This document shows positions 1-31,097 of a stretch of 42,888 nt of DNA, in pieces. Position 1 is the first letter of the stretch. Each line of letters begins with the position of its first letter. Source of the stretch: a virus (taxonomy: Duplodnaviria > Heunggongvirae > Uroviricota > Caudoviricetes). The stretch is from IMG/VR virus record IMGVR_UViG_2734482773_000006; one strand, 5' to 3'. The position numbers and the translations under genes were made by a program. The notes under the pieces were generated by a model. The model was not told where the DNA came from and did not search any database. It worked only from the letters and a program-made list of their open reading frames with translations.

Positions 1-2838
1 TTAAATACTCCCCGCGTTATACCACGTCCCATTAATGCAATACTGAATTGGCCTTGCCTGAGTTGTATCAATTAATTCAGCACGGTTTCCGTTAACTGAA
101 CCCGTAACGACATAACCTGACCTGTCAGACCAGCCGGGGCCTTTCCATGTCTGAACAGATGACAGACCGCCAAGGCGAATACCTGTAATAAACCTTGAGT
201 TACATTCTGCCTGCGTATATGCACCAACATCCCCCGCAGAGGGTTTGCGTGTTGTGGTGTAAAACTCTGACCAGTTAGCTTCAAAGCCATAACCATCACG
301 CGCTGAACGATAAAAAATACCGCCGTTCCTGTAATTCACGCGGAACTGTACAGCAGGGCAACTCCCCGCATTCATATTGAAGTGGAGGATTAATGTCGAT
401 GCACCACTGATATCTGCATCATAAACACCGCTATTCCAGTTCCAGCCAACAGCTTTATCATTTGCGACCCTGCGTCCTGTTTGCCCTAAAGCAAATGCAG
501 GCTGCTGGTTTTTCGTGTTGTAGTCTCGTCGCCAGCCAGGAGCGTAAGCATCACCATGATTAATATAAGTGAATTGAGCGTTAGTAATTCCGCCACCGCT
601 GGACGTGCTCGGCGTAGTAACGCGTATGGTCATTGCGCCGCGAGTGCCAATAACTTCCACCACAGCACCTGCAAGACAAATATTTCCGCAACCTGTATCT
701 GTAATAACCTTATTATTTGCATAAGCCCATGAGCCTTTGCACATCCAGTAAGGATGGTTAAATGCCCCCTGACTCTCCAGCCACGAAATAAATTGCGCAG
801 TTGTCCAGACCTGACTATCGCCACCAATATTCAGCCATGCGCTATATGCGCGGCAGGCACCAATGTTTTTGGTGAAGGTATCTTTTCCCGGAATATCTGC
901 GCCGTTCTGGTTTTTCTGTAATGCGCCAGAAGCCTGATTTACCGTTTCCTGTAAACCGAGGTATTCGATAACGGCAGCAACGGTCGATTTCGCAAGAATA
1001 TCCCGCCCGACTTTTGTCAGGGTTGCCAGGCTGGCGACATCATTCCCCGTAAAATACGGAAACCTGTCTGCCGCAGTAGCAAGCCCGGCCAGCGCCGTCA
1101 GGGTGGCATCTTTCGGTTGCTTACCCGCAAGCGCGTTAGTCATGGTGGTCGCAAAATTCGGGTCGTTGCCCAGCGCCGCCGCTAACTCGTTCAGCGTATT
1201 CAGTGCGTCAGGCGACGAGTCTACAAGGGCGGCAATCGCGGCCATCACATAAGCCGTACTTGCGATCTGAGTATTATTAGTACCTTTTGGCGCAGTTGGC
1301 GTTGTTGGCGTTCCGGTCAGTGCAGGACTATTTAAGGGCGCTTTCTTGTTCGTTTCATCCATTACCGCCTTAACCGCTTTTGGTGTCGCAGCCAGCGTTT
1401 CAGACGGGCTGTTAGTGGCGCTACTGAGCTGAACCACACCTTTTTTCGTCGTACTCGCATCTTCCAGAGATACGGCATCAGCAATATCCTCTGCCCGTTT
1501 TGCCGCTGTTTCGGCACGCGTTGCCGCGGATTCAGCAGCAACTTTGCTCTGAGATGCCGCCGTCGCACTGCCAGCAGCCTCTGTTGCCTTCGTGGATGCC
1601 GTCGTGGCGCTGCCCTTCGCTGCTGACGCTTGTCTGGTCGCCTCATCTTTTGAAGCAGACGCCGATGAGGCCGATGACGACGCCGAACTGGCTGACGATG
1701 CGGCAGCCGTTTTTGAGGATTCTGCGCTGGTTTCCGACGCTTTCGCGTTCGTTTCGGATGTCTTCGCTGCGGAAGCTGACCTCGCTGCTGCGCTGGCCTG
1801 CTCAGTGGCTTCGCCAGCCTTCGTTGTGGCTGTTGAAGCGGATGATGCGGCGCTTTCTGCCGATTTTCCGGCGGCGGTGGCACTGGCTGAGGCCTGCCCG
1901 GCACTTGTTGACGCGGCGCTGGCAGACGACGCAGCCGCTGTTTTTGAGCCTGCCGCAGCCGAGGCGCTCTGTCCCGCTGCCGTTTCAGAAGACCTGGCGT
2001 TTGTCTCAGACGTCTTTGCCGCCTTCGCGGAATTGCCTGCCGCCGTTGCCGAGGAAGCGGCACTACTGGCGCTTGATGATGCGTTCGTTTCTGATGATTT
2101 CGCTGCCTCTTTTGAGGCCGCCGCATCCCGGGCTGAGGTGGCTGCTTCTGACGCCTTCGTGGTCGCGGCGGATGCAGAAGTGGCTGCTGATTGTTGTGAC
2201 GCTGCCGCATTCGTTTCTGACGTTTTCGCCGCACCGGCACTGGTAGTTGCCGCGCTTTTTGAGGACTCTGCAGCAGCAGCACTTTTTGCTGCTTCACGGG
2301 CCTTTGTCGATGCCGTTCCTGCGCTGGAAGACGCTGACTGAGCCGACGACGCGGCCTGTCCGGCTGACGTGCTGGCTGCGCGTGCTGAGCCTGCAGCATC
2401 AGTCGCATGGGTTGCCGCCTCACGGGCTGATGTGCTGGCATCGCTGGCTGACTTCTTCGCGGCTGCCGTGTTCTGTGCCACCGCGGACGCGTTACGCGCC
2501 ACCTCTTCCACCATCAGCTCAAAACGGCGCAGTGCCTCCGGACGGGCATCATCCTCCGTCATGGCACCGAGAAAATCATTCAGCGTACCGGGCCGGGAAT
2601 CTTCATACACGGTGATGGTCCCGGCATGTGACGGCGGGAATCCCTCCACCAACAGAATAACGCTGTACTGCCCGTACTCAACGTCCATGCTGTAACGCCC
2701 GGCTTCATCCGGATTTTCTGAGGCCAGCGTGTTCACCACCACCGTGGTGCTGTTACGTTTTGCTTTCAGCTGGATTGTGCAGTTCTGTACCGGTTTTCCT
2801 GTGCCGTCTTTCAGTACACCTGAAATCTTTACTGCCAT
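1..2838 (-). CDS. stf: Side tail fibre protein Stf, with lambda-like N-terminus, long Ala/Ser/Thr-rich repeat region and divergent C-terminal domain
   Basis: ORF track 1..2844; N-terminus MAVKISGVLKDGTGKPVQNCTIQLKA matches lambda Stf as recalled; probable start at third codon; stop codon at 1..3 so the gene is complete. Confidence 0.85.
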   Translation of the reverse strand: MAVKISGVLKDGTGKPVQNCTIQLKAKRNSTTVVVNTLASENPDEAGRYSMDVEYGQYSVILLVEGFPPSHAGTITVYEDSRPGTLNDFLGAMTEDDARPEALRRFELMVEEVARNASAVAQNTAAAKKSASDASTSAREAATHATDAAGSARAASTSAGQAASSAQSASSSAGTASTKAREAAKSAAAAESSKSAATTSAGAAKTSETNAAASQQSAATSASAATTKASEAATSARDAAASKEAAKSSETNASSSASSAASSATAAGNSAKAAKTSETNARSSETAAGQSASAAAGSKTAAASSASAASTSAGQASASATAAGKSAESAASSASTATTKAGEATEQASAAARSASAAKTSETNAKASETSAESSKTAAASSASSASSSASSASASKDEATRQASAAKGSATTASTKATEAAGSATAASQSKVAAESAATRAETAAKRAEDIADAVSLEDASTTKKGVVQLSSATNSPSETLAATPKAVKAVMDETNKKAPLNSPALTGTPTTPTAPKGTNNTQIASTAYVMAAIAALVDSSPDALNTLNELAAALGNDPNFATTMTNALAGKQPKDATLTALAGLATAADRFPYFTGNDVASLATLTKVGRDILAKSTVAAVIEYLGLQETVNQASGALQKNQNGADIPGKDTFTKNIGACRAYSAWLNIGGDSQVWTTAQFISWLESQGAFNHPYWMCKGSWAYANNKVITDTGCGNICLAGAVVEVIGTRGAMTIRVTTPSTSSGGGITNAQFTYINHGDAYAPGWRRDYNTKNQQPAFALGQTGRRVANDKAVGWNWNSGVYDADISGASTLILHFNMNAGSCPAVQFRVNYRNGGIFYRSARDGYGFEANWSEFYTTTRKPSAGDVGAYTQAECNSRFITGIRLGGLSSVQTWKGPGWSDRSGYVVTGSVNGNRAELIDTTQARPIQYCINGTWYNAGSI

Positions 2839-2902
2839 ATTCACCCCACAAAAAAGCCCGCCTGAACCGGCGGGCTGTCATAACACTGTGTTACCTGGCT
2901 AA

Positions 2903-3502
2903 TCAGAATTTATAACCGACACCCACGATGAAACCGTCAGTGCGCCAGTCACCACTGCCGGAGCCTTCATAAGCAATATCAATGGCCACGGATTCGGTCG
3001 GGTTAAACTGCACGCCAGCCCCCCACGCCAGAGACGTGTTGCTGTGGCGACCGTCATCACTTCCGGTCAGCACATCGTGCGTTTTCCCCTTGTTGTCAGT
3101 TACGCGAAGATAATCCCCGGAGAAAGTCGACACACGGCTGTAAGCTACACCCGCCATCGCATACGCGCTGAACCATTCATTCACGCGCACAGACGGCCCC
3201 GCCATTACGCTGAACCAGCGGTTACGAACGGAATCTTCATGCCAGCGGGTATCGCTGTAACGGGTCAGCTGGCGATTCTTGTCTCCTGCATAGCTGAATG
3301 ACGTCACCAGCCCCAGTGTGTCCGTAAACTCATAACGGTATTTCACGTTAATCCCGTTCAGATCATCACTGCCGGGGACGTTCGTCGAGGCATGAAGATA
3401 CCCCGCGCTCAGCGTGGACTGATGTTCAGACGCCCATGCAGGCGCACCGGATACGGCCAGACAAATGGCTGCGGACAAAATTGCTGCACAAACTTTACGC
3501 AT
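2903..3502 (-). CDS. lom: Outer membrane protein Lom (Ail/Lom family)
   Basis: 199-aa ORF with signal peptide, ends in aromatic residue (beta-barrel); position between J and stf as in lambda. Confidence 0.9.
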   Translation of the reverse strand: MRKVCAAILSAAICLAVSGAPAWASEHQSTLSAGYLHASTNVPGSDDLNGINVKYRYEFTDTLGLVTSFSYAGDKNRQLTRYSDTRWHEDSVRNRWFSVMAGPSVRVNEWFSAYAMAGVAYSRVSTFSGDYLRVTDNKGKTHDVLTGSDDGRHSNTSLAWGAGVQFNPTESVAIDIAYEGSGSGDWRTDGFIVGVGYKF

Positions 3503-3572
3503 AATTACCTCTCGCTTTTCTGCAATAAAAAAGGCGTCATTCCTGACGCCCTTTATTGGGGTTATAAATATT

Positions 3573-6500
3573 TCAACGAATACTGATGCCGGAAGCGGCT
3601 TTTTTGGTCACAATCACCGTACAGTCGGTGATATTGCCTGCCCCCTGATTGCCTTTCTGGAAAATCTTAAACTCCAGAGTGACGCTTCCCCTGCCACTCG
3701 GCATATCAATAACTGCACTGTAACTACCGGGAATGGCCCCTTTAGTTTCTCTGGATGCGATTAATACGCCGTTTTTGCGAACTTCAAAACCATAACCCGT
3801 GTATCGCGTGCCTCCTGGGTTATTTCCGCTCCCCGGATCGTCATACGCTATACCGTTAAAAATAATGGGCGGAATAATAATCTGGCGGTCAAAGTTATGA
3901 TCATCGCTGATGGTGACTGTAACCGTACCGTTTGGTGTTTCCGTGTTACCCCACGTACCGACTTTTTTCGGGAAGGCTTTTGATACAGCTTTAACGAAAT
4001 CTCCTCTGACCTGGGTCGCCTCCAGCATGCCCTTAATCGTACAGTTCTGGTTAATCGTGACATTGTTGAGCGTTCCTGAGTTCGCATTCACACTGCCACT
4101 GATATCCGCATTTTTCGCCGTCAGTCTCCCGTCTGATGTCAGGGAAAATGCCGGAGGATTACCGCCGCTGGTAATGGTGGGGGCCGTCAGGCGTTTCAGG
4201 AACACTTCATTCATGAATATCTGATCGCCCTGACCAACAAACATCGGCTTTGTGTTGCCATTCGCAGGATTAATCATCGCAATCCTGTCTGCTGCCAGCA
4301 GCACCTGACTCTGCATGCCGTCAGGGGTGTTCTCAATACCGGCACCGATACCCGCAATATAAAGGCGTCCGTCCTGCATCTGCTGCAGCTTCACTGCCCA
4401 CATGCTGTTCAGGTTATTATTTGTATCAACCTGAACCTTCTGTATCTGCTGGATCGCTGCACTCTGGTCTTCCAGTTTCTTATTGACGGTCTGTGTTATT
4501 TCATTGCTGACATCCGTTATGGACGTCCTGATTTCAGTCAGGTCAGGCGCAAGCTGACCGTTATCAATCTGCGTCCACAGCTCCTGAGCCAGATGGGTTT
4601 TCCCTATCTCGCCTTTGAAAAAATCCAGATAGCCTGATGCATCATCACTCGGCTGACCGACAGCCTCCACGAATGCCGATTTGCCAACGGTGTTCACACT
4701 GCGGATATAAAAGTAATAATCATGGCCCGGTTTGATATTGATACTGGCGGCTATCCAGTACAGCCCCGTGCCAAGGTAGCGGGCTGTGGTTTCAACCTGC
4801 CTGATATCGGTAATCCGCGTTTCCGAGAACCAGAACTCAAATTGTACCGTCGGATCATAAACCGCAAGATGCGGCGTGGCGGTTATCTGAAAATAGCCCG
4901 GTGTCAGCTCAATCCGAGACGGCGCTGCCGGTGCGGCAATCCGGAACGATACCGATGCCGGTTCGCCCTGCTGTCCCCACGCATTTACCGCCCGGACAGT
5001 CAGCCTGTAGTTCCCCAGCGCCAGTTGCGTGAAGCGGTATGTGGTTTCCGTCGTCCTGGCCGTACTGACCAGCCGCTCACTGCCATCGTCCGCTGCCACG
5101 GTCAGGCGAAGCAGGAAGCTCACCCCCTTCACCACCTTCGGCGTGTCCCAGCGCGCCAGCACCTGATATTCCCCGCTGTCTGCGGTGACTTCGGCAGTCA
5201 GGTGCTGCACCGCGGGCGGCGTGACGCCATTCACCGTGCCGCTCAGGTCGCCGTCAAAGTGCGCCCCGTTATCCACGATGGCTTCTTTTTCGGGTACATG
5301 CTGCACGGCGGTGATGGCATACGTGCCGTCGTCGTTCTCACGGATACTCACGCAGCGGAACAGGCGCTGGCGCAGCGTCGGCAGCTTCAGCCCCCACACG
5401 CTGTATCCGGCAACGCCGTCAGGAACACGGCTCACTTTTACCTTCACGCCGTCGGTGACGGACTGGACCTCCACGCTGACCGGATTGCCACTTCCGTCAA
5501 CCAGGCTTATCAGCGTGGTACCGGAGGATGGCAGCGTGATTTCACGGTCGAGCGTCAGCGTCCGGGTCTGGCTGTTCACCGCCAGCACGCGCCCGCCGAT
5601 GCTGATACCCGCATAGTCATCATCGCAGATTTCAATGACATCCCCCGGTACATGGCGAAGCCCTTCCGCACCCACGCTGAAGTCCACGGTCTGCGTTTCC
5701 AGCAGTTCCGTTTTAATCAGCCACAGCCCGGCGCGGTGCGCCTGCCCCCGGCTGGTACAGCCAAAGGCATCCATCTTCGTGACGTTACGACCGTAACGGG
5801 CAATGGCCTGAGTATCTTCAACAAGCTCTGTCGCCGTCTCCCAGCCGTTGTTCGGGTCAATCCAGTTCACCTCAACGGCATTATGGCGGTCCTTCAGGGC
5901 GCTGAAGCTGTAGCGGAACGGCGCGCCATCATCCGGCATCACCACATTACTGCGGTTATAGGTCCACGCCTTATCCGACGGTCGGTCCTGCACAAACGTC
6001 AGCGTCTGCCCGTTCCATACCGGCATACAGCGCATCGCCGAGCAGAAATCACTGAGCACATCCCACGCCTTACGCTGTGTGGTCAGGTACGCATTACAGG
6101 TGATGCGCGGCTCCGTGCCGCCAAAGCCGTCCGGCACTGACTGGTCGCAGTACTGGCCGATGACATACAGCGCCCATTTATCTACATCCGCTGCACCAAG
6201 ACGTTTCCCCATGCCGTAGCGCGGATGGGTCAGCATATCCCACATACACCAGGCCATGTTGTTGCTGTATGCTGGCTTAAACGTTCCGTCCCAGATACCG
6301 CTGTATTGCCGCGTCTGCGGGTTATAGTTCGACGGCACCTGCAGAATGCGCCCGCGCAGATGATAATTACGGCTCACCTGCTGGCTGCCGAACTGCTCCG
6401 AATCCACCTGCACGCCGACCAGTGCCGTGTTCGGGTAGCACTGTTTCACATCGATGATTTCGGTGTATGACGACCAGAGCGTTTTGTTCTGCAGCTGGTC

Positions 6501-7070
6501 TGTGGTGCTGTCCGGCGTCATCCTGCGCATCCGGATATTAAACGGGCGCGGCGGCAGGTTATCCACCACCACCGAGGCCAGATACTGCGAGGTGGTTTTG
6601 CCCTTAATGGTGATGTCTTTTTCCGTCACCCAGCCACCGTTACGCTGTATCTGAACCAGCAGGCGGACTTCCGACGGATTCCGGTCCCCCTTTGAGGTGG
6701 TTTCCACCAGTGCCTGCACACCGAAGGTAAAGCGCAGACGGTCGATGTTTGCAGACGTAATGGTGCGGGTGATCGGCGTGTCATATTTCACTTCCGTACC
6801 CAGCACCGTCTCGGAGCCGGAGGATTCAAACCCCTCCGGCGGTGTCTGCTCCTGCTCACCGGCACGGAACACCACCGTGACACCGGAGATGTTGGTATTC
6901 CCCTCAGTGTCCAGCACCGGCGTACTGTTCAGCAGCACGCTTTTTAATCCATCCACCGGACCTTCAACCGGCCCTTCGCTGATGGCATCGATCACACTCA
7001 GCAGCTGCGTGGACTTCAGGTTGTCCTTCGCTTCGCGCGGGGTATGCCCCTTACTGCTGCCTTTACCCAT
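3573..7070 (-). CDS. J: Tail tip host specificity protein J (central tail fibre)
   Basis: 1165-aa ORF; N-terminal and central sequence lambda J-like; C-terminal ~150 aa differ from lambda J as recalled. Confidence 0.95.
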
Positions 7071-7130
7071 TCCTCACGCTCCATAAATGACAAAACCGCC
7101 CGCAGGCGGTTTCACATAAAACATTTTGCA

Positions 7131-7802
7131 TCAGCGACCAATCACCACAACCTGACCACCGTCCCCTTCGTCTGCCGTGCTGATCTCCTGAGAAACCACG
7201 CGAGACCCCACGCGCATTTCCCCGTACAGAACAGGCAGAACATTGCCCTGGGCAACCATGTTATCCAGTGAGGAGAAATAGGTGTTCTGCTTACCGTTAT
7301 CCGTTGTCTGTGTACGGGGAGTTCTGGCTTTCGGTGCCAGCATCTGCGCCACACCACCGAGCACCATACTGGCACCGAGAGAAAACAGGATGCCGGTCAT
7401 ACCACCGGTCCCAATGGCTGCCCCCCATGCTGCAAGGGTGGCTCCGGCGGTAAAGAATGATCCGGCAATGGCGGCAGCCCCCAGGACAATCTGGAATACG
7501 CCACCTGACTTGGCCCCGGCGACTCTGGGAACAATATGAATCACAGCGCCATCAGGCAGAGTCTCATGTAACTGCGCCGTTAACCCGGACGTGCTGACGT
7601 CCCGCCCGGCAATCCGTACCTGATACCAGCCGTCGCTCAGTTTCTGACGAAACGCCGGGAGCTGTGTGGCCAGTGCCCGGATGGCTTCAGCCCCCGTTTT
7701 CACACGAAGGTCGATGCGGCGACCAAATCGTTGTAAATCCCCGTAAAGGCAGATGCGCGCCATGCCCGGTGACGCCAGAGGGAGTGTGTGCGTCGCTGCC
7801 AT
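7131..7802 (-). CDS. I: Tail assembly protein I
   Basis: 223 aa, same length as lambda I; overlaps K by ~100 nt as in lambda. Confidence 0.9.
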   Translation of the reverse strand: MAATHTLPLASPGMARICLYGDLQRFGRRIDLRVKTGAEAIRALATQLPAFRQKLSDGWYQVRIAGRDVSTSGLTAQLHETLPDGAVIHIVPRVAGAKSGGVFQIVLGAAAIAGSFFTAGATLAAWGAAIGTGGMTGILFSLGASMVLGGVAQMLAPKARTPRTQTTDNGKQNTYFSSLDNMVAQGNVLPVLYGEMRVGSRVVSQEISTADEGDGGQVVVIGR

Positions 7803-8443
7803 TTGTCGGTGTACCTCTCTCGTTTGCTCAGTTGTTCAGGAATATGGTGCAGCAGCTCGCCGTCGCCGCAGTAAATTGCGGCGTGATTCGGCACTGATGA
7901 ACCAAAACAGCACAGCAGCACATCGCCCGGCTGTGCCGCTGACAACGGCACCTGATACAGCCCCGTCGCCTCCAGATTATCCAGATAGAGATTCTGGCCG
8001 TTACGCCACCAGTCATCCTCACGATAAAAGTCCGGCATCTCAATCCCCGCCAGATGATAAGCATCCCGGAACAGTGTGTAACAGTCCGTCACACCGTGCT
8101 CAAAGCGCCGCCCGGTGAGATGCGGCACACAGCGGAACTTATGAATCGTCCCCCGGCAGACCAGCCACCACGGCAAATCACTCTGCACCTGCAGCCGCCG
8201 GTCGGCCTCACTCAGCCAGGGCAGACCACCGGGGTGGCTGTGGACCAGCGCCACAATCTCACCCTGCATTTCTGCCTGCAGCCAGTCTTCCGGCGACATA
8301 CGGAAATACGCCTCCGGCTCACCGGAGATATTCACGCAGGGAAAATATCTTTCCCCCTCCGGCGTGCTTACCACGAAGCCGCACGACTCCGCTGGCGCAC
8401 ATCGCCGGGCGTGCGCCAGAATCGCTGATTCTGTCTGTGTCAT
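7700..8443 (-). CDS. K: Tail assembly protein K (JAB/MPN plus NlpC/P60-like)
   Basis: ORF begins MTQTESAILAHARRC; HSH and cysteine motifs; follows L. Confidence 0.9.
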   Translation of the reverse strand: MTQTESAILAHARRCAPAESCGFVVSTPEGERYFPCVNISGEPEAYFRMSPEDWLQAEMQGEIVALVHSHPGGLPWLSEADRRLQVQSDLPWWLVCRGTIHKFRCVPHLTGRRFEHGVTDCYTLFRDAYHLAGIEMPDFYREDDWWRNGQNLYLDNLEATGLYQVPLSAAQPGDVLLCCFGSSVPNHAAIYCGDGELLHHIPEQLSKRERYTDKWQRRTHSLWRHRAWRASAFTGIYNDLVAASTFV

Positions 8444-8448
8444 GGGAT

Positions 8449-9147
8449 TTACTGCGAAAGTTTGTTAATGGAAAGGAAGCCGCCAAAGTTGCCGACGTTA
8501 TTGCGGAACTTACAACCGCTCAGGCATTTGCTGCATTTATCCTTCGTGATATCGGACGTTGGCTGGTCATATTCATCCGCGACAGCCGGACCGCTATAAC
8601 CGCACTCGTCACCGCGATAGGTCCAGGTGCAGGTGTTGGCCAGCATGATACGTCCCGGAAAAACAGCGCCATCCGTTTCCGTCGGCGTGGACAGTACAAA
8701 GGAGGCACTCACCGCGCTCAGTTCGCTGCACTGCTCAATGCGCCAGCGGCTGATCACCTCCTGCTCCGGATCGGCGTAACTGTTTCCGTTGACGAAGTTC
8801 ACCGCATCCAGAAAACGGGCGTAAACCTTACGCCGGACCACCGTTCCGCCGACCAGACTCTGCATATCTTCCGCCATCCCGGTGACCATACCGTACAGGT
8901 TAGAAACCGTCAGCGTGGGGCGCATACTGGTGCCTTTGCCATTCAGTTCAAAACCGCTCCCCTGAATGGGATACGGCTGATACTGTCGCCCCTGCCAGGT
9001 GACCGGCTCACCTTTTTCGTTCTGCTCATTACAGAAAAAATAACGTTCTCCACCGACCTCTGTCAGGTCGATTTCCCAGAGCACCACGCTGGCCGACTGC
9101 TCCGCACGGGTGCATTCATTCAGTGTTTCCTGCCGGATATCCTGCAT
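8449..9147 (-). CDS. L: Tail tip protein L
   Basis: 232 aa, same length and position as lambda L. Confidence 0.9.
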   Translation of the reverse strand: MQDIRQETLNECTRAEQSASVVLWEIDLTEVGGERYFFCNEQNEKGEPVTWQGRQYQPYPIQGSGFELNGKGTSMRPTLTVSNLYGMVTGMAEDMQSLVGGTVVRRKVYARFLDAVNFVNGNSYADPEQEVISRWRIEQCSELSAVSASFVLSTPTETDGAVFPGRIMLANTCTWTYRGDECGYSGPAVADEYDQPTSDITKDKCSKCLSGCKFRNNVGNFGGFLSINKLSQ

Positions 9148-9476
9148 CAGTTCACCACCTGTTCAAACTCTGCGCTGAACTCAACACGCAGCATACTGAC
9201 CCGCGACGACCATTTTGCGCAGGTCACCTTTATCTGCCGCCACTCATAAGGCGGCGTCCACAGAAAGGCTTTCCAGCCCCCGTGCTCTTCCAGAAACGAC
9301 TCCAGTACCGTGGCCTCCTCACGGGGGACAGAAAGCGTCACGCTGTACGTTTTCAGGTTGGCATTCAGCCCGGCAGGCGCTCGCTGGGAATAGCCATCAC
9401 CAAAGCGCACCTTTCTTACAGAAGGGGCCGAAGCCACATCCATACCGGGTTTCACTTTCCAGCGGAAGGTTTTCAT
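9147..9476 (-). CDS. M: Tail tip protein M
   Basis: 109 aa, same length and position as lambda M. Confidence 0.9.
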   Translation of the reverse strand: MKTFRWKVKPGMDVASAPSVRKVRFGDGYSQRAPAGLNANLKTYSVTLSVPREEATVLESFLEEHGGWKAFLWTPPYEWRQIKVTCAKWSSRVSMLRVEFSAEFEQVVN

Positions 9477-12052
9477 CGTCCACCTCCGGAGAACAGGCCA
9501 CCATCACGCATCTGTGTCTGAATTTCATCACGGGCACCCTTGCGGGCCATGTCATACACTGCCTTCATCATCTGTGGACCTGGCAGACCATTCGTACCGT
9601 CGTTCTGAATCACCACGTGATTGTTCTGATTAAAATTAATGCCTTCAGCCCGCCGCATCTGCGCCGGACTTCCGGCACCGCCCACATAACCACCTTCCGC
9701 ATAGCCCCGCATCAGGCGGTACAGGTTGCCGACACCAATCCGGCTGGTTGCCTCCTTCGTGAAGACAAATTCACCACGGTGAACAATCCCCGCTGGCTCA
9801 TATTTGCCGCCGGTTCCCGTAAATCCCCCGGTCGCAAAATGGAATTTCGCCGCAGCGGCCTGAATGGCTGTACCGCCTGACGCGGATGCTCCACCACTGG
9901 CAGCACCGCCAATGGCGCTGCCGATACTCCCGACAATCCCCACCATTGCCTGCTTAAGCAGAATTTCTGTCATCATGGACAGCACGGAACGGGTGAAGCT
10001 GCGCCAGTTCTGCTCACTGCCGGTCAGCATCGCCGCCATATTCTGTGCAATACCATCAAAGGTCTGCGTGGCTGCACTTTTAAACTGCGACATACTGTCC
10101 GTGGCGCTCTCTTCCCACTCACTCCAGCCGGACTTCAGGCCTGCCATCCAGCTCCCGCGAAGCTGGTCTTCAGCCGCCCAGGTCTTTTTCTGCTCTGACA
10201 TGACGTTATTCAGCGCCAGCGGATTATCGCCATACTGTTCCTTCAGGCGCTGTTCCGTGGCTTCCCGTTCTGCCTGCCGGTCAGTCAGCCCCCGGCTTTT
10301 CGCATCAATGGCGGCCCGTTTTGCCCGTTGCTGCTGTGCGAATTTATCCGCCTGCTGCGCCAGCGCGTTCAGGCGCTCCTGATACGTAACCTTGTCGCCA
10401 AGTGCAGCCAGCTGGCGTTTGTACTCCAGCGTCTCATCTTTATGCGCCAGCAGGGATTTCTCCTGTGCAGACAACTGACGACGTTGCGCCGCCTCCTCCA
10501 GTACCGCGAACTGACTTTCTGCCTTCCACAAATCCCGGCGCTGCTGGCTGATTTTCTCATTCGCTCCGGCATGCTTCTCCAGCGTCCGGAGTTCTGTCTG
10601 AAGCATCAGCAGGGCAGCATGAGCACTGTCTTCCTGACGATCGCCCGCAGACACCTTCACGCCGGACTGTTTCGGCTTTTTCAGCGTCGCTTCATAATCC
10701 TTTTTCGCCGCCGCCATCAGCGTGTTGTAATCCGCCTGCAGGATTTTCCCGTCTTTCAGTGCCTTGTTCAGTTCTTCCTGACGGGCGGTATATTTCTCCA
10801 GCGGCGTCTGCAGCCGTTCGTAAGCCTTCTGCGCCTCTTCGGTATATTTCAGCCGTGATGCCTCAGACTCGGCCCAGTCCTTTGCTGCCATCTCTCTGGC
10901 CTTTTCAAGATCGGCCTGCAACGTGGCGGCTGAAAGCCCAAGTTGCGCATTCGCTCTGTCCTCCCATGCTCCCCGGAGATTGGCAAGAAATGCTGAGGTT
11001 TTACCGCGCCGGTGGCTCCGGCTCTGATACCACTGCCATTTTTTGTCCGCCTCATCAAAAGCCTTTTCTGCTTTCTCCAGCATTCCCTGGGCAGTGTCCG
11101 GGCGACCAATATCCAGCACCGAATCCCACATGGATTTGAATGCCCGTGCTGTCCTGTCTGCCCAGGTCTCCAGCGTGCCCATGTTCTCTTTCAGGCGGCG
11201 GGTCTGGTCATCAAACCCTTTCGTTGCGGCCTCGTTCGCCGCCTGCAATGCCCCGGCTTCATCTCCGGAACGCTGCAACTGAGCAACATACGCAATCTGC
11301 TCCGCCGTCACGTTATGGAACTGACGTGCCATCGCTGTCAGTCCCGACGTCGGGTCTGTGGTCAGCTTCCCGAAGGCTTCAGCGACCTTGTCCACCTCCA
11401 CGCCGGATGCAGAGGAGAAACGCGCCACACTCTGGCTGATCGCCTCAAACTGCTCACCACCACGCACACCGGCATTCACCAGCGCCGTCAGTGACTCGCT
11501 GGTCTGGTTAAACGTCAGCCCTGCCGCCTGCCCGGCTCTGGACAGGACCAGCATACGATCTGCCGTCAGTCCCGCCTGATTGCCGGAAAGGACCAGCGTT
11601 TTGTTGAAATCGGACAGGGTTGAGTTGCCCTGATACCAGGCATACGCCAGCGCACCGGTCGCCACCGCCAGCGAGGTGGCCCCCACCATCGGCAGGGTGA
11701 TCGCACCGGCAAGCCCCCTGAACATGGGGATCATCCCGCCGAAGGAGTCCTTAACCTGACCCCCCTGTTGCAGCAGGATCAGCCACGGGCTTTGCCCGCC
11801 TGCAAGCTGCGTGGCCACGTCGGTGAACTGTGCAGGCAGCATACGCATGGCGGCTTTATACTGCCCGACGGAAATCCCCGCTTTCTGTGCAGCCAGCGCC
11901 TGTCGGCTCAGCGACTGTTCAACGACTGCCGCTGTTTTTTTCGCATCAGTTTCCGTACCGGAAAAATGACGCCTGACTCTGGCCATCTGCTCGTCAAATC
12001 TGGCCGCATCCAGACTTAAATCAACGACCAGATCGCCTACCGGTTCAGCCAT
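9473..12052 (-). CDS. H: Tail tape measure protein H
   Basis: 859-aa ORF, coiled-coil rich, C-terminal Gly-rich segment; lambda H position. Confidence 0.95.
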   Translation of the reverse strand: MAEPVGDLVVDLSLDAARFDEQMARVRRHFSGTETDAKKTAAVVEQSLSRQALAAQKAGISVGQYKAAMRMLPAQFTDVATQLAGGQSPWLILLQQGGQVKDSFGGMIPMFRGLAGAITLPMVGATSLAVATGALAYAWYQGNSTLSDFNKTLVLSGNQAGLTADRMLVLSRAGQAAGLTFNQTSESLTALVNAGVRGGEQFEAISQSVARFSSASGVEVDKVAEAFGKLTTDPTSGLTAMARQFHNVTAEQIAYVAQLQRSGDEAGALQAANEAATKGFDDQTRRLKENMGTLETWADRTARAFKSMWDSVLDIGRPDTAQGMLEKAEKAFDEADKKWQWYQSRSHRRGKTSAFLANLRGAWEDRANAQLGLSAATLQADLEKAREMAAKDWAESEASRLKYTEEAQKAYERLQTPLEKYTARQEELNKALKDGKILQADYNTLMAAAKKDYEATLKKPKQSGVKVSAGDRQEDSAHAALLMLQTELRTLEKHAGANEKISQQRRDLWKAESQFAVLEEAAQRRQLSAQEKSLLAHKDETLEYKRQLAALGDKVTYQERLNALAQQADKFAQQQRAKRAAIDAKSRGLTDRQAEREATEQRLKEQYGDNPLALNNVMSEQKKTWAAEDQLRGSWMAGLKSGWSEWEESATDSMSQFKSAATQTFDGIAQNMAAMLTGSEQNWRSFTRSVLSMMTEILLKQAMVGIVGSIGSAIGGAASGGASASGGTAIQAAAAKFHFATGGFTGTGGKYEPAGIVHRGEFVFTKEATSRIGVGNLYRLMRGYAEGGYVGGAGSPAQMRRAEGINFNQNNHVVIQNDGTNGLPGPQMMKAVYDMARKGARDEIQTQMRDGGLFSGGGR

Positions 12053-18173: not shown

Positions 18174-21854
<3,681 letters not shown>

Positions 21855-21880
<26 letters not shown>

Positions 21881-22400
21881 TCAGCAACCCCGGTATCAGT
21901 TCATCCAGCGCGGCTGCTTTGTTCATGGCTTTGATGATATCCCGTTTCAGGAAATCAACATGTCGGTTTTCCAGTTCCGGAAAACGCCGCTGCACCGACA
22001 GGGGGATCCCGTCGAGAATACTGGCAATTTCACCTGCGATCCGCGACAGCACGAAAGTACAGAATGCGGTTTCCACCACTTCAGCGGAGTCTCTGGCATT
22101 CTTCAGTTCCTGTGCGTCGGCCTGCGCACGCGTAAGTCGATGGCGTTCGTACTCAATAGTCCCTGGCTGGAGATCTGTCTCGCTGGCCTGCCGCAGTTCT
22201 TCAACTTCCCGGCGCAGCTTTTCGTTCTCAATTTCAGCATCCCTTTCGGCATACCATCTTATAACGGCGGCAGAGTCATAAAGCACCTCATTACCCTTGC
22301 CACCGCCTCGCAGAACGGGCATTCCCTGTTCCTGCCAGTTCTGAATGGTACGGATACTCGCACCGAAAATGTCAGCCAGCTGCTTTTTGTTGACTTCCAT
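21855..22400 (-). CDS. nu1: Terminase small subunit Nu1
   Basis: 181 aa, begins MEVNKKQLADIFGASIRTIQNWQEQGMPV (HTH), lambda Nu1. Confidence 0.95.
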
Positions 22401-22640
22401 TGTTCATTCCACGGACAAAAACAGAGAAAGGAAACGACAGAGGCCAAAAAGCCCGTTTTCAGCACCTGTCGTTTCCTTTCTTTTCAGGGGGTATTTTAAA
22501 TAAAAACATTAAGTTACAACGAAGAAGAACGGAAATGCCTTAAACCGGAAAATTTTCATAAATAGCGAAAACCCGCGAGGTCGCCGCCCCGTAACCTGTC
22601 GGATCGCCGGAAAGGACCCGCAAAATGATAATAATTATCA
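22401..22640 (-). other. cos: cos packaging site (cosB, cosN, cosQ); 12-nt cohesive end at about 22579..22590
   Basis: Minus strand reads GGGCGGCGACCTCGCGGGTTTTCGCTATTTATGAAAATTTTCCGGTTTAAGGC, the lambda left end as recalled, preceded by the lambda right-end sequence CGGGTCCTTTCCGGCGATCCGACAGGTTACG. Confidence 0.85.
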
Positions 22641-22788
22641 TCTACATGTCACAACGTGCATCTACGCCATCAAACCACGTCAAATAATCAATTATGACGC
22701 AGGTATCGTATTAATTGATCTGCATCAACTTAACGTAAAAACAACTTCAGACAATACAAATCAGCGACACTGAATACGGGGCAACCTC

Positions 22789-22983
22789 ATGTCAACGAAG
22801 AACAGAACCCGCAGAACAACAACCCGCAACATCCGCTTTCCTAACCAAATGATTGAACAAATTAACATCGCTCTTGAGCAAAAAGGGTCTGGGAATTTCT
22901 CAGCCTGGGTCATTGAAGCCTGCCGTCGGAGACTAACGTCAGAAAAGAGAGCATATACATCAATCCAAAGTGATGATGGATGA
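22789..22983 (+). CDS. Small YlcI-like protein (DUF3950 family as recalled), possible ribbon-helix-helix fold
   Basis: 64-aa ORF between cos and bor, same neighbourhood as ylcI in DLP12; Arg-rich N-terminus. Confidence 0.55.
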   Translation: MSTKNRTRRTTTRNIRFPNQMIEQINIALEQKGSGNFSAWVIEACRRRLTSEKRAYTSIQSDDG

Positions 22984-25427: not shown

Positions 25428-26525
25428 ATGAAAAAATTAACAGTGGCAATTTCTGCTGTAGCTGCATCAGTACTGATGGCGATGTCTGCTCAGGCAGCTG
25501 AAATTTATAATAAAGACAGTAACAAGCTGGATCTGTACGGAAAAGTTAATGCCAAGCACTACTTTTCCTCTAACGATGCAGATGATGGTGATACTACTTA
25601 TGTTCGTCTGGGCTTCAAAGGCGAAACCCAAATCAACGATCAGCTGACTGGTTTCGGTCAGTGGGAATATGAATTCAAAGGCAACCGCGCTGAATCTCAA
25701 GGTTCCTCCAAAGACAAAACCCGTCTTGCATTTGCAGGCCTGAAATTCGGTGACTACGGCTCAATCGATTACGGCCGTAACTACGGTGTAGCATACGACA
25801 TCGGTGCGTGGACTGACGTTCTGCCAGAATTCGGTGGCGATACCTGGACCCAAACAGATGTGTTCATGACTGGTCGCACCACTGGTGTTGCAACCTATCG
25901 TAACAACGACTTCTTTGGTCTGGTTGATGGTCTGAACTTTGCTGCTCAGTACCAAGGCAAAAACGATCGTAGCGATTTCGATAACTACACCGAAGGTAAC
26001 GGTGATGGCTTCGGTTTCTCTGCTACCTATGAATACGAAGGGTTCGGTATCGGTGCAACTTATGCGAAATCTGATCGTACCGACACTCAAGTTAATGCAG
26101 GGAAAGTTCTTCCTGAAGTATTTGCTTCCGGTAAAAATGCAGAAGTTTGGGCCGCAGGTCTGAAATATGACGCTAACAACATTTACCTGGCCACTACCTA
26201 TTCTGAAACCCAGAATATGACTGTATTTGCTGATCACTTCGTTGCTAATAAAGCTCAAAACTTCGAAGCTGTTGCACAATATCAGTTCGATTTCGGTCTG
26301 CGTCCGTCCGTTGCTTACCTGCAATCTAAAGGTAAGGATCTTGGAGTATGGGGCGATCAGGACTTAGTCAAATATGTTGATGTAGGTGCAACCTATTACT
26401 TCAACAAAAATATGTCTACTTTCGTTGATTACAAAATCAACCTGCTTGACAAAAATGACTTCACTAAAGCACTCGGTGTAAGCACTGATGACATCGTTGC
26501 TGTAGGTCTGGTTTACCAGTTCTAA
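25428..26525 (+). CDS. nmpC: Outer membrane general porin, NmpC/Lc (OmpC/OmpF family), intact
   Basis: 365-aa ORF with signal peptide [23 protein letters not shown] and C-terminal VGLVYQF; matches DLP12 NmpC / phage PA-2 Lc as recalled; lies between Q and S on the opposite strand. Confidence 0.9.
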
Positions 26526-28813: not shown

Positions 28814-30709
28814 TTAATTATTTTTCTTTAACTTGAAATTTCTTCCCATTGCTAGTGTTCTTCGAAGATTCGAATCATAAGCTGGTTGATAATATCTATC
28901 ATAAAAATCCTTAATTGTCTGATGGTAAGTATCCAGCATCAAACCATAAAACCCCCTAACCTTAAGATAATCCACCAAGGGAAATAAATAATCATCAGTC
29001 TGAACATCAGTATCAATATTATTTTTTTGTTTTTTAACTTCAAATTTGTATAAGTTTAACTCACCCTTATCCATCGTGCATGAAAAAAGGTCGTCAAAAA
29101 TCAAATCAATTTCTGTCATAGGAACTCGTTCTTTTCCAGACATTATAGGTAGAATATCAATACCTAAGAGCGAACCTAATACAAAGTCGTAATGAAGCGA
29201 AATCACTGAGTCATTCGATGTCGAGTTGCCTTTGATAAATACTCTACTTAGTGCCGAGTCAAAAACATTCTCAACTCTCTCTCTCGTCATGTTTGCGACA
29301 TCTACAACTCCCATATCACGAGAAGCTTTTATTGTGATTTCATCTATAAATGCTTTGGAATCTAGTGAATGTAAAAACAACATGAAGTTATCTAACTGTT
29401 CAGAGCATTTAATAGCCACCATAAGATTTTCGTATATATCTTTTTTATACTCAATCGGTAAATTTGCTACCGCAAAAGCAGCATAAAATTCTTGCACTGA
29501 TTTATGCAGAAAAACATACCTATTATTTCCCTCAGGTTGGATAAGGCAAGTTATCTCAATAAGATCATCTATAAAGTTTGATGCATCTTCTTTAAGATAA
29601 CCTTCTGTTTCAATAGCATCTTCAGCATATCTAAGCAACTCCTCTCCCCAAAACTCAAATTTCTCCTCAATCAGTGCGTTATAGCAAATAGCTGAAAAAC
29701 ACAATTTAGCTTTTTCACCAATAATGTTTGATTTTTTCTCGCGCGTATATACTTTTATTTTATCATGCCTTGCATATAAGGTGTCAAAGAGGCTTCGATA
29801 AAACTCTATTATATTATTTGGAATATCATTCATATAAGGATAACAATAATACAAAAGAGTAACTAAAATTGGATTGCAAATAGTTCCCTCAAGTTCTTCT
29901 TTATCACATAGTAAATCCGCCAAGACTTTAAACGAGGCATCACTACTTGAGAATCTGTCATTTTTCGATAAAGAATGAAGAATACAAATCTTATCAGAAA
30001 TATTTAGCTTATCTATAAAAATATTATACACATCAGTAGTATAACATATATCTGTATTTGGTCTCGTTGTTGCGATAATTGGTGTGTTAAAATGATAATG
30101 AATGTTTTTTATTTCATTCATCATCATAGTTCGCTCTTCATGTTTAACCTCATCAAATCCATCCAACATTAAAACGACTCTTTGGGATTGCAGTAATATT
30201 TTCAAGCTATCCTCTGAACACCCCACACCAAATGAATTAAGAATGTCTGCCAGATAAGCAATAATATTTGCATTCTTCACCCTTCTTAATTCAATAAAAA
30301 AAGGCATCCGTTCTGATTTTTTTATTTCCTCGCTAAACAACTTGCGTAAAATAGTACTTTTCCCTTGCCCCGCTATACCGACTATATTTACAATACCATG
30401 AAATGGTAAAGTGACCCCATCTTTTATAACGACCTTGTCTTTATTAGATGCCACCTCAACAGTTAACGGATAATAAATATCATCTAAAAAAATATCATAA
30501 TCAGCGTTGTGCAAAGTTCTCATTTTCAGAGATGGTAGCACATGCTTTCTTAAATAATTTTCTCTTCCGAGGGGATCATTTAATTGTTCGAGTATAACCT
30601 TGCCTTCATCTAGGTCCCTAGCCCAAGGTTTAGAGAGCAATACTTCTGTTATTTTTTCCGCAGCTTTTCCTACTGTGCTATTAATAATAGTCGCAAGAAA
30701 CTCATCCAT
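28814..30709 (-). CDS. NACHT/STAND-family P-loop NTPase (bacterial NLR-like), candidate single-gene anti-phage defence protein
   Basis: ORF track 28814..30766 (650 aa); likely start at internal Met (30709) preceded by GGTGA; Walker A GIAGQGKST (ORF aa 130-138), Walker B VVLMLDGFDE (197-206), TTRP (233-236); visibly AT-rich gene with AT-rich non-coding flanks. Confidence 0.7.
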   Translation of the reverse strand: MDEFLATIINSTVGKAAEKITEVLLSKPWARDLDEGKVILEQLNDPLGRENYLRKHVLPSLKMRTLHNADYDIFLDDIYYPLTVEVASNKDKVVIKDGVTLPFHGIVNIVGIAGQGKSTILRKLFSEEIKKSERMPFFIELRRVKNANIIAYLADILNSFGVGCSEDSLKILLQSQRVVLMLDGFDEVKHEERTMMMNEIKNIHYHFNTPIIATTRPNTDICYTTDVYNIFIDKLNISDKICILHSLSKNDRFSSSDASFKVLADLLCDKEELEGTICNPILVTLLYYCYPYMNDIPNNIIEFYRSLFDTLYARHDKIKVYTREKKSNIIGEKAKLCFSAICYNALIEEKFEFWGEELLRYAEDAIETEGYLKEDASNFIDDLIEITCLIQPEGNNRYVFLHKSVQEFYAAFAVANLPIEYKKDIYENLMVAIKCSEQLDNFMLFLHSLDSKAFIDEITIKASRDMGVVDVANMTRERVENVFDSALSRVFIKGNSTSNDSVISLHYDFVLGSLLGIDILPIMSGKERVPMTEIDLIFDDLFSCTMDKGELNLYKFEVKKQKNNIDTDVQTDDYLFPLVDYLKVRGFYGLMLDTYHQTIKDFYDRYYQPAYDSNLRRTLAMGRNFKLKKNN

Positions 30710-31097
30710 TTTTTCACCACATTCATTAACCAATACGTGGTGCATTCTTACAAGACTCAGTAACAATTGTCAATCATAGGTTTTCGCATGATTGCAAAAC
30801 GCCATAAACAATTGTAGCACCATAATTTTAAACACTATATAATATACAACCTTCCTACAAGCATTCAGTACATCGCTTAATCACAGGGCTTGAATATATA
30901 GTAAGGAATCGATATTAATCACCTCATCTACTTTAAACATCTTACACACCTATAATTTATAATAGTCAACACGAGGTCATCATATTAAACATGCAATTAC
31001 AAACATTCATTTTTATATAAATTTTCATGATTTAACCGTAGGGCGACGGTAATAAATTTCATATACAAGGATTTAAGCTCCCATACGTTTTCTATTA

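Follow-up and report, generated by a model that had tools for sequence, protein, structure and literature searches.

The viral sequence IMGVR_UViG_2734482773_000006, whose entire 42,888 nt form the window analyzed here, opens with stf, the side tail fiber gene of a lambda-like Escherichia coli prophage integrated at att-lambda. This gene joins a lambda-type constant part in frame to a tip of the phage Mu S' type at a DNA inversion site, and we consider it very probable that the resulting fiber is one arm of a host-range switch that lacks an invertase of its own. The lambda Stf constant part, for which structures have been solved or modeled, the Mu S' tip, whose structure has been solved, the U and U' chaperones, gix-type sites, and invertible fiber segments in lambdoid elements are each already known separately. 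Specific to this case are the in-frame fusion of a Mu G-like cassette to a lambda-type Stf, the decayed invertase that keeps an enhancer-equivalent stretch, and the finding of both orientations.

The Stf tip is of the Mu S' type and begins at a crossover site

Residues 629 to 945 of Stf have no detectable similarity to residues 524 to 774 of lambda Stf (E = 1.5), and the protein does not carry lambda's gp37-like, OmpC-binding C-terminal tip. The match is instead to the structure 8JU3 in the PDB ("Tail fiber protein S, Tail fiber protein S'"; E = 2e-220, aligned over residues 623 to 945). Identity of the tip amounts to 94.8% with Mu gp52, which is the variable portion of S', to 93% with P7 Sv as well as Mu S', and to 85% with P1 Sv'. 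A novel tip fold was rejected, since this solved structure is ~95% identical. The original prediction, made from the sequence of the window alone, had described a modular fiber with a foreign tip whose ~300 C-terminal residues are rich in Gly, Trp, Asn, and Cys and unlike the lambda Stf C terminus. All of this holds, the last 318 residues containing 12 of the 12 Trp and 7 of the 8 Cys of the protein along with 13% Gly and 8% Asn, but the description of the tip as divergent and unrecognized gives way to its near identity with Mu S'. Judged by its sequence, then, stf is joined to the lambda Stf family through the constant part only and not through the tip.

The similarity of the protein to lambda ends at the residues V-I-E-Y-L-G, and DNA homology to lambda ends at window position 956/959. 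This lambda/Mu joint coincides with the center (positions 958-959, inside codon Leu627) of a 26-bp Gin/Cin/Pin-type crossover site, TTATCGAATACC-TC-GGTTTACAGGAA, which encodes I-E-Y-L-G-L-Q-E and forms part of a full inverted-repeat arm at positions 938-975. Tip swapping had been predicted as a route to altered host range; the tip is indeed foreign, but the programmed nature of the exchange had been missed, the joint being a Gin-type crossover site inside the open reading frame (ORF).

In contigs that match the window, an inverted partner site and an opposed tip lie past its edge

The cassette beyond the window edge was described from E. coli STEC309, whose stf is 100% identical to that of the window, from contig L021, and from other identical or near-identical genomes. 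Over 8,838 nt, contig L021 matches the window without a single mismatch, and its downstream 6 kb has 3 mismatches to STEC309; its identity to the window therefore makes for a strong inference of the downstream cassette, though from sequence outside the window. The tfa assembly gene, which the original prediction had placed beyond the edge, begins 2 nt past the stf stop codon in every identical context seen, so that the lambda-type gene order J-lom-stf-tfa is present.

In STEC309, positions 938-975 are one arm of a 38-nt inverted repeat (92% complementary) whose partner lies 3,011 nt downstream, outside the window. The partner crossover site, TTATCTAAAACC-TC-GGTTTACAGGAA, is 3,053 nt from the first and has the same central dinucleotide. 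The inner half-site and central TC of both sites are identical to Mu gix, and the mismatches to gix amount to 3 positions in the window site and 1 in the partner. The segment between them continues past stf with a U'-type tfa (97% identical to Mu U'), an inverted U-type tfa (94% identical to Mu U), and an inverted, N-terminally incomplete tip gene of 320 aa. This silent alternative tip shares 91-92% identity with the P88 and PhiR68_1 tips and only 70% with Mu S. Overall, the ~3.1-kb segment is 87.5% identical at the DNA level to the Mu G segment, with flanks in the arrangement of Mu G(-), the reverse of that in Mu G(+). By analogy with Mu, the state found in the window is the equivalent of G(-), in which the S'-type tip and the U' chaperone would be expressed.

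Both orientations of the segment occur among E. coli genomes

We built the flipped junction in silico, placing the silent tip in frame behind the constant part with the joint at the center of the site. This predicted junction was found at 100% identity over its 828 nt in at least 10 complete genomes, and at a coverage of at least 80% it was found in 262 genomes, versus 126 for the junction in the window state. ETEC6, PEC1003, and MSI001 carry the 3,053-nt segment as an exact reverse complement of the window-state one (99.9% identity), with the same att-lambda site, the same remnant of an invertase gene, and both crossover sites unchanged. The fiber ORF is open in both states, at 945 aa as found in the window and at 959 aa once flipped. 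(The PGAP annotation labels the flipped-state stf of L006, L007, and L013 a pseudogene "missing C-terminus," even though its 959 codons are uninterrupted.) Among complete genomes, the closest relative of the tail region shares 99.8% identity with it over window positions 933-12000, and the homology breaks at position 933, in the repeat arm, because the segment of that relative is flipped.

The cassette keeps 64 codons of a gin-like invertase gene

The invertase gene starts 67 nt beyond the distal site, the same spacer as in Mu, and is only a stub. Its 64 codons are 93% identical in DNA to the 5' end of gin and continue, by fusion, into the final ~30 codons of a lambda-type tfa. Within it, nt 19-90 are 100% identical to Mu gin and align to the enhancer annotated at nt 19-90 of P1 cin. 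The same stub recurred in each of the 16 cassette contexts examined, from 10 complete genomes and 6 further contigs; among them are att-lambda prophages, the NCTC9699 prophage at the Rac site, and one prophage near ompT. Codons 1 to 64 are all that is left of the cassette's own gene in any of the 16, and the cassette thus lacks a functional serine invertase of its own. The likely origin of this arrangement, as its sequence suggests, is the replacement of the stf 3' end and most of tfa in a lambda-type operon by a block comprising a G-like segment, the spacer, and gin nt 1-192.

With the cassette invertase reduced to a stub, any current inversion must be catalyzed in trans. The stub-side flank is 99.7-100% identical over 700 nt in the two orientation states, and the presence of the same truncated stub in both therefore makes at least one inversion after the loss of the invertase, that is, catalysis in trans, the simplest history. 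We thus regard inversion by an invertase supplied in trans as likely on the sequences compared. Potential suppliers are common: the part of gin missing from the stub is matched in 3,173 of 5,426 complete E. coli genomes, annotated as pinE or as a recombinase family. In NCTC9699 (L012, 2333-8470), the cassette and stub lie in the Rac-site prophage with a full-length pinR ~100 nt beyond the tfa remnant and ~220 nt beyond the stub. Inversion of the e14 P segment in trans by PinQ of the Qin prophage has been demonstrated (PMC12529663), and by this analogy a supply of invertase in trans is plausible here.

The constant part is a lambda-type fiber with a lengthened heptad shaft

The stf ORF starts with ATG (an alternative GTG start lies at 2844) and has its stop codon at window positions 1-3. 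It is preceded on the same strand by J (3573-7070) and lom (2903-3502), in the lambda-like order J-lom-stf, and RefSeq annotates an identical coding sequence in genomes that are 100% identical across stf. The only Pfam domain in the protein is PF08400 (prophage tail fiber N-terminal; aa 1-134, E = 1.2e-71), and many tail-fiber families of the PHROGs database match along its full length. The lambda-type side tail fiber gene of the original prediction was confirmed by PF08400, by the match of aa 1-94 to the lambda tail fiber N terminus in PDB 9E7M/9MGH (E = 1.2e-51), and by colinearity with lambda Stf. In that prediction only the ~100 N-terminal residues matched lambda, which is a large underestimate: in a global alignment with Ur-lambda Stf (774 aa), the fiber is colinear over aa 1-628 of its 945 residues with a single gap, a 105-aa insertion. 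Identity to lambda Stf is 90% over aa 1-134 of both proteins and 80% between aa 409-628 here and 304-523 of lambda.

Ur-lambda gpStf has been divided into StfN (residues 1-91), a linker (92-101), a proximal coiled coil (102-393), a hinge (394-422), plus the distal coiled coil (423-525) (PMC12617516). The part of Stf that aligns to the proximal coiled-coil domain so named consists of 47 uninterrupted heptads, compared with 32 in lambda. Across Ala127-Ala455, Ala occupies heptad position 1 in 47 of 47 cases and position 5 in 34, and Ser occupies position 4 in 37; the identity autocorrelation reaches z values of 8-10 at each lag that is a multiple of 7 and at none of the other lags. A coiled-coil geometry of the shaft would follow from this pattern, and the 15 extra heptads would add roughly 15 nm of reach if the coiled coil is canonical. 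The repetitive Ala/Ser/Thr-rich stretch of the original prediction is real in composition (35% Ala, 23% Ser, and 12% Thr in aa 135-500) and in its AKTSETN units (AKTSETN three times and AKSSETN once), but it is a strict heptad array and not a low-complexity region. Similarly, the DNA is GC-rich as claimed (62% in the heptad stretch versus 51% window-wide), but its repetitiveness is weak. Tandem Repeats Finder reported only three tiny arrays in stf, with scores of at most 50, and the dispersed direct repeats are 62-88% identical with spacings that are mostly multiples of 21 nt. A reading of the region as a DNA tandem repeat was rejected on these scores, the regularity lying in the heptad register of the protein.

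Repeat-length variation had been proposed as well. Among eight compared prophage copies of the lineage, Stf is 945, 959, or 989 aa long; what varies is the tip or a 44-aa module, and no change in heptad number was seen. The one length variant that was examined, the 989-aa Stf of NCTC9699, gained its 44 aa by duplication of the VQLSSATNS..AATPKAVK module of the distal shaft and not of heptads. Many lambdoid phage fibers share only window positions 1367-2844 with stf and diverge near 1370-1379.

The 2,844-nt stf region is 100% identical in three independent complete E. coli genomes and is found at full length and 96-97% identity in ~35 further genomes, while the exact 945-aa protein is indexed in 113 blocks of the assembly collection. 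With this identity in three genomes and such a wide distribution of the protein, stf is not an assembly artifact; a collapse of the repeat region, which had been raised as an assembly problem, is ruled out by the same observations.

Overlapping reading frames in stf are mostly by-products of composition

Three long spurious ORFs had been noted in other frames of the repetitive region. They exist, and together with further other-frame ORFs they were compared with a null in which synonymous codons were resampled and the protein sequence was kept. Four of the five alternative frames match this null and are therefore composition by-products, and as real genes these four were rejected. The exception is the frame of 1500..2246 on the plus strand, whose stop-free run of 272 codons is longer than the null (96 ± 30). 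This frame, followed through to 2615, is unusually open because junctions of a T-ending codon with an A-starting one are avoided: the heptad region contains 3 such junctions versus 14.5 expected (ratio, 0.21). The ratio is 0.11 in lambda stf, 0.6-1.0 in the neighboring genes, and 1.01 in J. The translation of 1500..2246 is rich in Arg, Leu, Pro, and Trp, heptads that arose by duplication are nonindependent samples, and the ORF is probably noncoding. In the records of phages ev099 and mEp332, two or three "hypothetical proteins" are annotated under the stf match; these are probably composition-driven overlapping ORFs of the same kind.

Other features of the prophage and its relatives

The coordinates of the features are collected in Table 1. 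The window prophage looks complete, with terminase, portal, and tail genes, a CI-like repressor, O, and Int. Its late, lysis-side accessory region carries a gene for a 365-aa general porin (PF00267, E = 2e-156; 25428-26525, plus strand), which could change what receptors the lysogen displays on its surface. Also inside the prophage, at 28814-30766 on the minus strand, is a gene for a 650-aa protein in which a NACHT NTPase domain was detected (PF05729, E = 3e-11); it is a candidate anti-phage STAND/Avs-like gene. A DGQHR-domain gene is additionally annotated in relatives of this region. Past the fiber cassette, between it and ybhB/bioA at the bio-side end of the prophage at att-lambda, lies a low-GC gene for a MASE4-GGDEF diguanylate cyclase that is likely a moron.

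STEC309, the best-matching complete genome for stf, is 98% identical to the window outside this gene. In the prophage of STEC309 (L002, 21756-23557, versus window 21683-22951), IS100 sits within the large terminase gene, and the immunity region contains an IS3 element; the window prophage is without IS100, and its early region differs (93-95% identical or unmatched). The contigs L017, L020, and L022 encode exactly this Stf and hold severely reduced prophages. In L017 and L022 a holin gene abuts a C-terminal fragment of J, and in L020 Nu1 is followed by an uncalled gap and then stf; stf and the cassette are whole and unchanged in all three.

Table 1. Location of stf, its parts, the overlapping reading frames, and a gene past the window edge
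Feature	Position	Strand	Basis
stf, side tail fiber gene, 945 aa	1..2838	minus	ORF list, PF08400, PHROG tail fiber families, RefSeq coding sequence with the same ends in STEC309
Variable tip, aa 629-945, Mu S' (gp52) type, first coding part of the invertible segment	4..954	minus	PDB 8JU3, Mu gp52 alignment
26-bp Gin/Cin/Pin-type crossover site	946..971	minus	Inverted partner, Mu gix comparison
Hinge and distal shaft module, aa 456-628, with VQLSSATNS..AATPKAVK motif	955..1473	minus	Alignment; domain names from PMC12617516
47 uninterrupted heptads A-x-x-S-A-x-x, aa 127-455, proximal coiled-coil shaft (predicted), GC-rich stretch	1474..2460	minus	Heptad count, autocorrelation, DNA repeat spacing
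105-aa (15-heptad) insertion versus Ur-lambda Stf, aa 304-408	1615..1929	minus	Global alignment
PF08400 domain, to aa 134	2437-2838	minus	Pfam
StfN collar domain, aa 1-91, anchors fiber to tail	2566..2838	minus	PDB 9E7M/9MGH; limits from PMC12617516
Overlapping 359-aa ORF, other frame of the coding strand, composition by-product	1362..2441	minus	Stop-free run 383 codons vs simulated 356 ± 24
Antisense 249-aa ORF, A/D/F/V-rich, composition by-product	1592..2341	plus	Stop-free run 262 codons vs simulated 275 ± 105
Antisense 248-aa ORF, continuing after one stop as 2247..2615	1500..2246	plus	Stop-free run 272 codons vs simulated 96 ± 30, 0/500 as long
Further other-frame ORFs	2247..2615 and 2369..2695	plus	ORF list
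MASE4-GGDEF diguanylate cyclase gene	STEC309 contig L001 2107-3438, ~2.6 kb past window left edge; contig L021 11401-12732		

Proposed mechanism and alternative explanations

We propose that the collar domain docks the fiber trimer on the tail and that a linker leads into the Ala/Ser-core coiled-coil shaft of 47 heptads, followed by the hinge and distal shaft to residue 628 and then the tip. Inversion at the two sites would place the other tip in frame behind the unchanged constant part and would bring in the other chaperone, and this exchange would change the lipopolysaccharide (LPS) structure that is bound and hence the hosts. K-12 is not a plating host of Mu G(-) particles, which instead plate on E. 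coli C, Citrobacter, Shigella sonnei, and Erwinia. The two alternative fiber sets of Mu recognize the outer and inner LPS core (PMC11821841), and the resemblance of the tip to Mu S' points to LPS as its receptor. Present-day inversion would be catalyzed in trans by a Pin/Gin-family invertase of another prophage, as the decay of the cassette's own gene leads us to infer.

Several observations weigh against an active switch of this kind. The window itself holds only the constant part, one crossover site, and one tip, and the outer half-site on the Sc side differs from Mu gix at 3 of its 12 positions. A tblastn search of the window with Gin found no gin-like gene, so an invertase elsewhere in the window was rejected, and no invertase lies beside the cassette in any att-lambda copy examined. 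The two orientations were seen between genomes only, and the flanks of the compared flipped and unflipped copies differ (94-99% identity), so whole-cassette exchange by homologous recombination could contribute. The receptor specificity, for its part, would follow from ~95% identity to Mu S'.

One alternative is that the cassette was captured from a Mu-like or P1-like phage, flipped while its invertase worked, and has been locked since the truncation, so that stf is a fixed lambda-Mu chimera and the orientations are old alleles spread by homologous recombination. The invertase is indeed a 64-codon stub in every copy examined, and a near-invariant cassette (at least 99.8% identical) amid mosaic flanks (94-99%), found in prophages at three different chromosomal sites, indicates that the cassette moves by recombination. 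The same truncation joint, however, occurs in both orientations, and a single truncation implies at least one later flip or else a crossover inside the ~260 nt of stub and spacer. Moreover, the enhancer-equivalent stretch is intact, both sites have kept identical inner half-sites and core, and many E. coli genomes carry an invertase that might serve in trans, such action being documented for PinQ on e14 (PMC12529663). We therefore see a locked cassette as a real possibility, albeit an unlikely one, and favor a segment that can still be flipped in trans.

A bolder form of the favored account is that the cassette has become a client switch, which shed its own invertase, kept the crossover sites and the enhancer-bearing stub, and is flipped by the Pin-family invertases of other resident prophages, setting either the host range or a fiber product that benefits the host. 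Selection for invertibility or for a fiber product would fit the persistence of the exact protein and cassette in prophages that are missing the head genes and most or all tail genes, as well as the travel of the same stub with the cassette to three prophage sites. In our judgment this extension is doubtful.

The same persistence (in L017, L020, and L022) could mean that the bacterium keeps the cassette for its own purposes, for example, as a secreted or surface fiber fragment that blocks adsorption of other phages, and StfE2 of e14 after PinQ inversion provides a precedent (PMC12529663). Yet the window prophage looks complete, and an ordinary virion role therefore suffices; retention in deleted prophages could also reflect recent deletions. 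A domesticated function is for these reasons improbable.

A plain mosaic fiber, in which host range depends only on horizontal tip replacement and an unstable repeat copy number with no programmed switch, would suit the mosaicism of tail fiber genes, the many lambdoid fibers that share only window 1367-2844, and the 15-heptad difference from lambda, but it is highly improbable given the canonical crossover site at the joint, the inverted partner, the paired opposed tips and chaperones, the exactly flipped natural copies, a DNA sequence that is not a tandem array, and eight lineage copies (945, 959, and 989 aa) that vary in the tip or the 44-aa module and not in the heptads.

The gene should be annotated as the Sc plus Sv of an invertible cassette with a Mu S'-type tip and not as a fiber with an unknown tip. 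It is also a natural in-frame chimera of lambda Stf and a Mu tip, and its E-Y-L-G joint could be tried as the junction for engineered lambda particles. Should flipping in trans prove true, the host range of a lambdoid prophage would depend on its coresident prophages.

Comparison with known fiber systems

The constant part is closest to Ur-lambda Stf, with which it is colinear, through collar, predicted coiled-coil shaft, hinge, and distal shaft, over aa 1-628 at 80-90% identity in the compared modules and which occupies the same gene position after J and lom. Ur-lambda Stf differs in having 15 fewer heptads and a T4 gp37-like OmpC-binding tip that is unrelated to the Mu S'-type tip found here. 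It also has only a relic outer half-site, TTCTTGAATACC-TT, and no invertible segment. In lambda stf this relic (TTCTTGAATACC-TT-GG, codons 518-523) is located at the same E-Y-L-G codons, which suggests, on sequence grounds, that lambda's own tip was once joined at such a crossover site.

Among lambdoid elements, the e14 P segment with pinE, in a defective prophage of E. coli K-12, likewise has the 3' end of a side-fiber gene exchanged by a Din-family invertase (PMC4272514, PMC12529663). That segment is 1.8 kb with an intact pinE, whereas the one described here is a 3.05-kb Mu G-like segment without an invertase; the two are likened by description only. In phage LLS, also lambdoid, two opposed putative tail-fiber genes and an invertase gene led to the suggestion of Mu/P1-like tip switching (PMC12315714). 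LLS, again likened by description only, differs in keeping an invertase.

The C segment of P1 and P7 shares a tip (93% identity to P7 Sv) and the logic of opposed Sv/U sets, and its annotated recombinational enhancer falls within the 5' end of cin, where the stub has its putative equivalent. Residues ~547-627 of Stf are also matched by the closing part of the P7 constant region. The C segment is, however, 4.2 kb long, cin is transcribed toward it, and the cix core is TT rather than TC.

The closest relative of the cassette is the Mu G segment, with 87.5% DNA identity over ~3 kb, 94.8% identity of the tip to S', and 97% and 94% identity of the chaperones to U' and U, respectively. The two systems have the same inner half-sites and central dinucleotide, the same 67-nt spacer, and an invertase gene that points away from the segment. 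They differ in that the silent tip here is 70% identical to Mu S and closer to those of P88 and PhiR68_1 (91-92%), that the invertase has been cut to 64 codons and fused to a tfa remnant, and that the Sc of Mu is replaced by the constant part of lambda Stf, which brings a siphovirus side fiber with its collar and long predicted coiled coil under a Mu-type tip.

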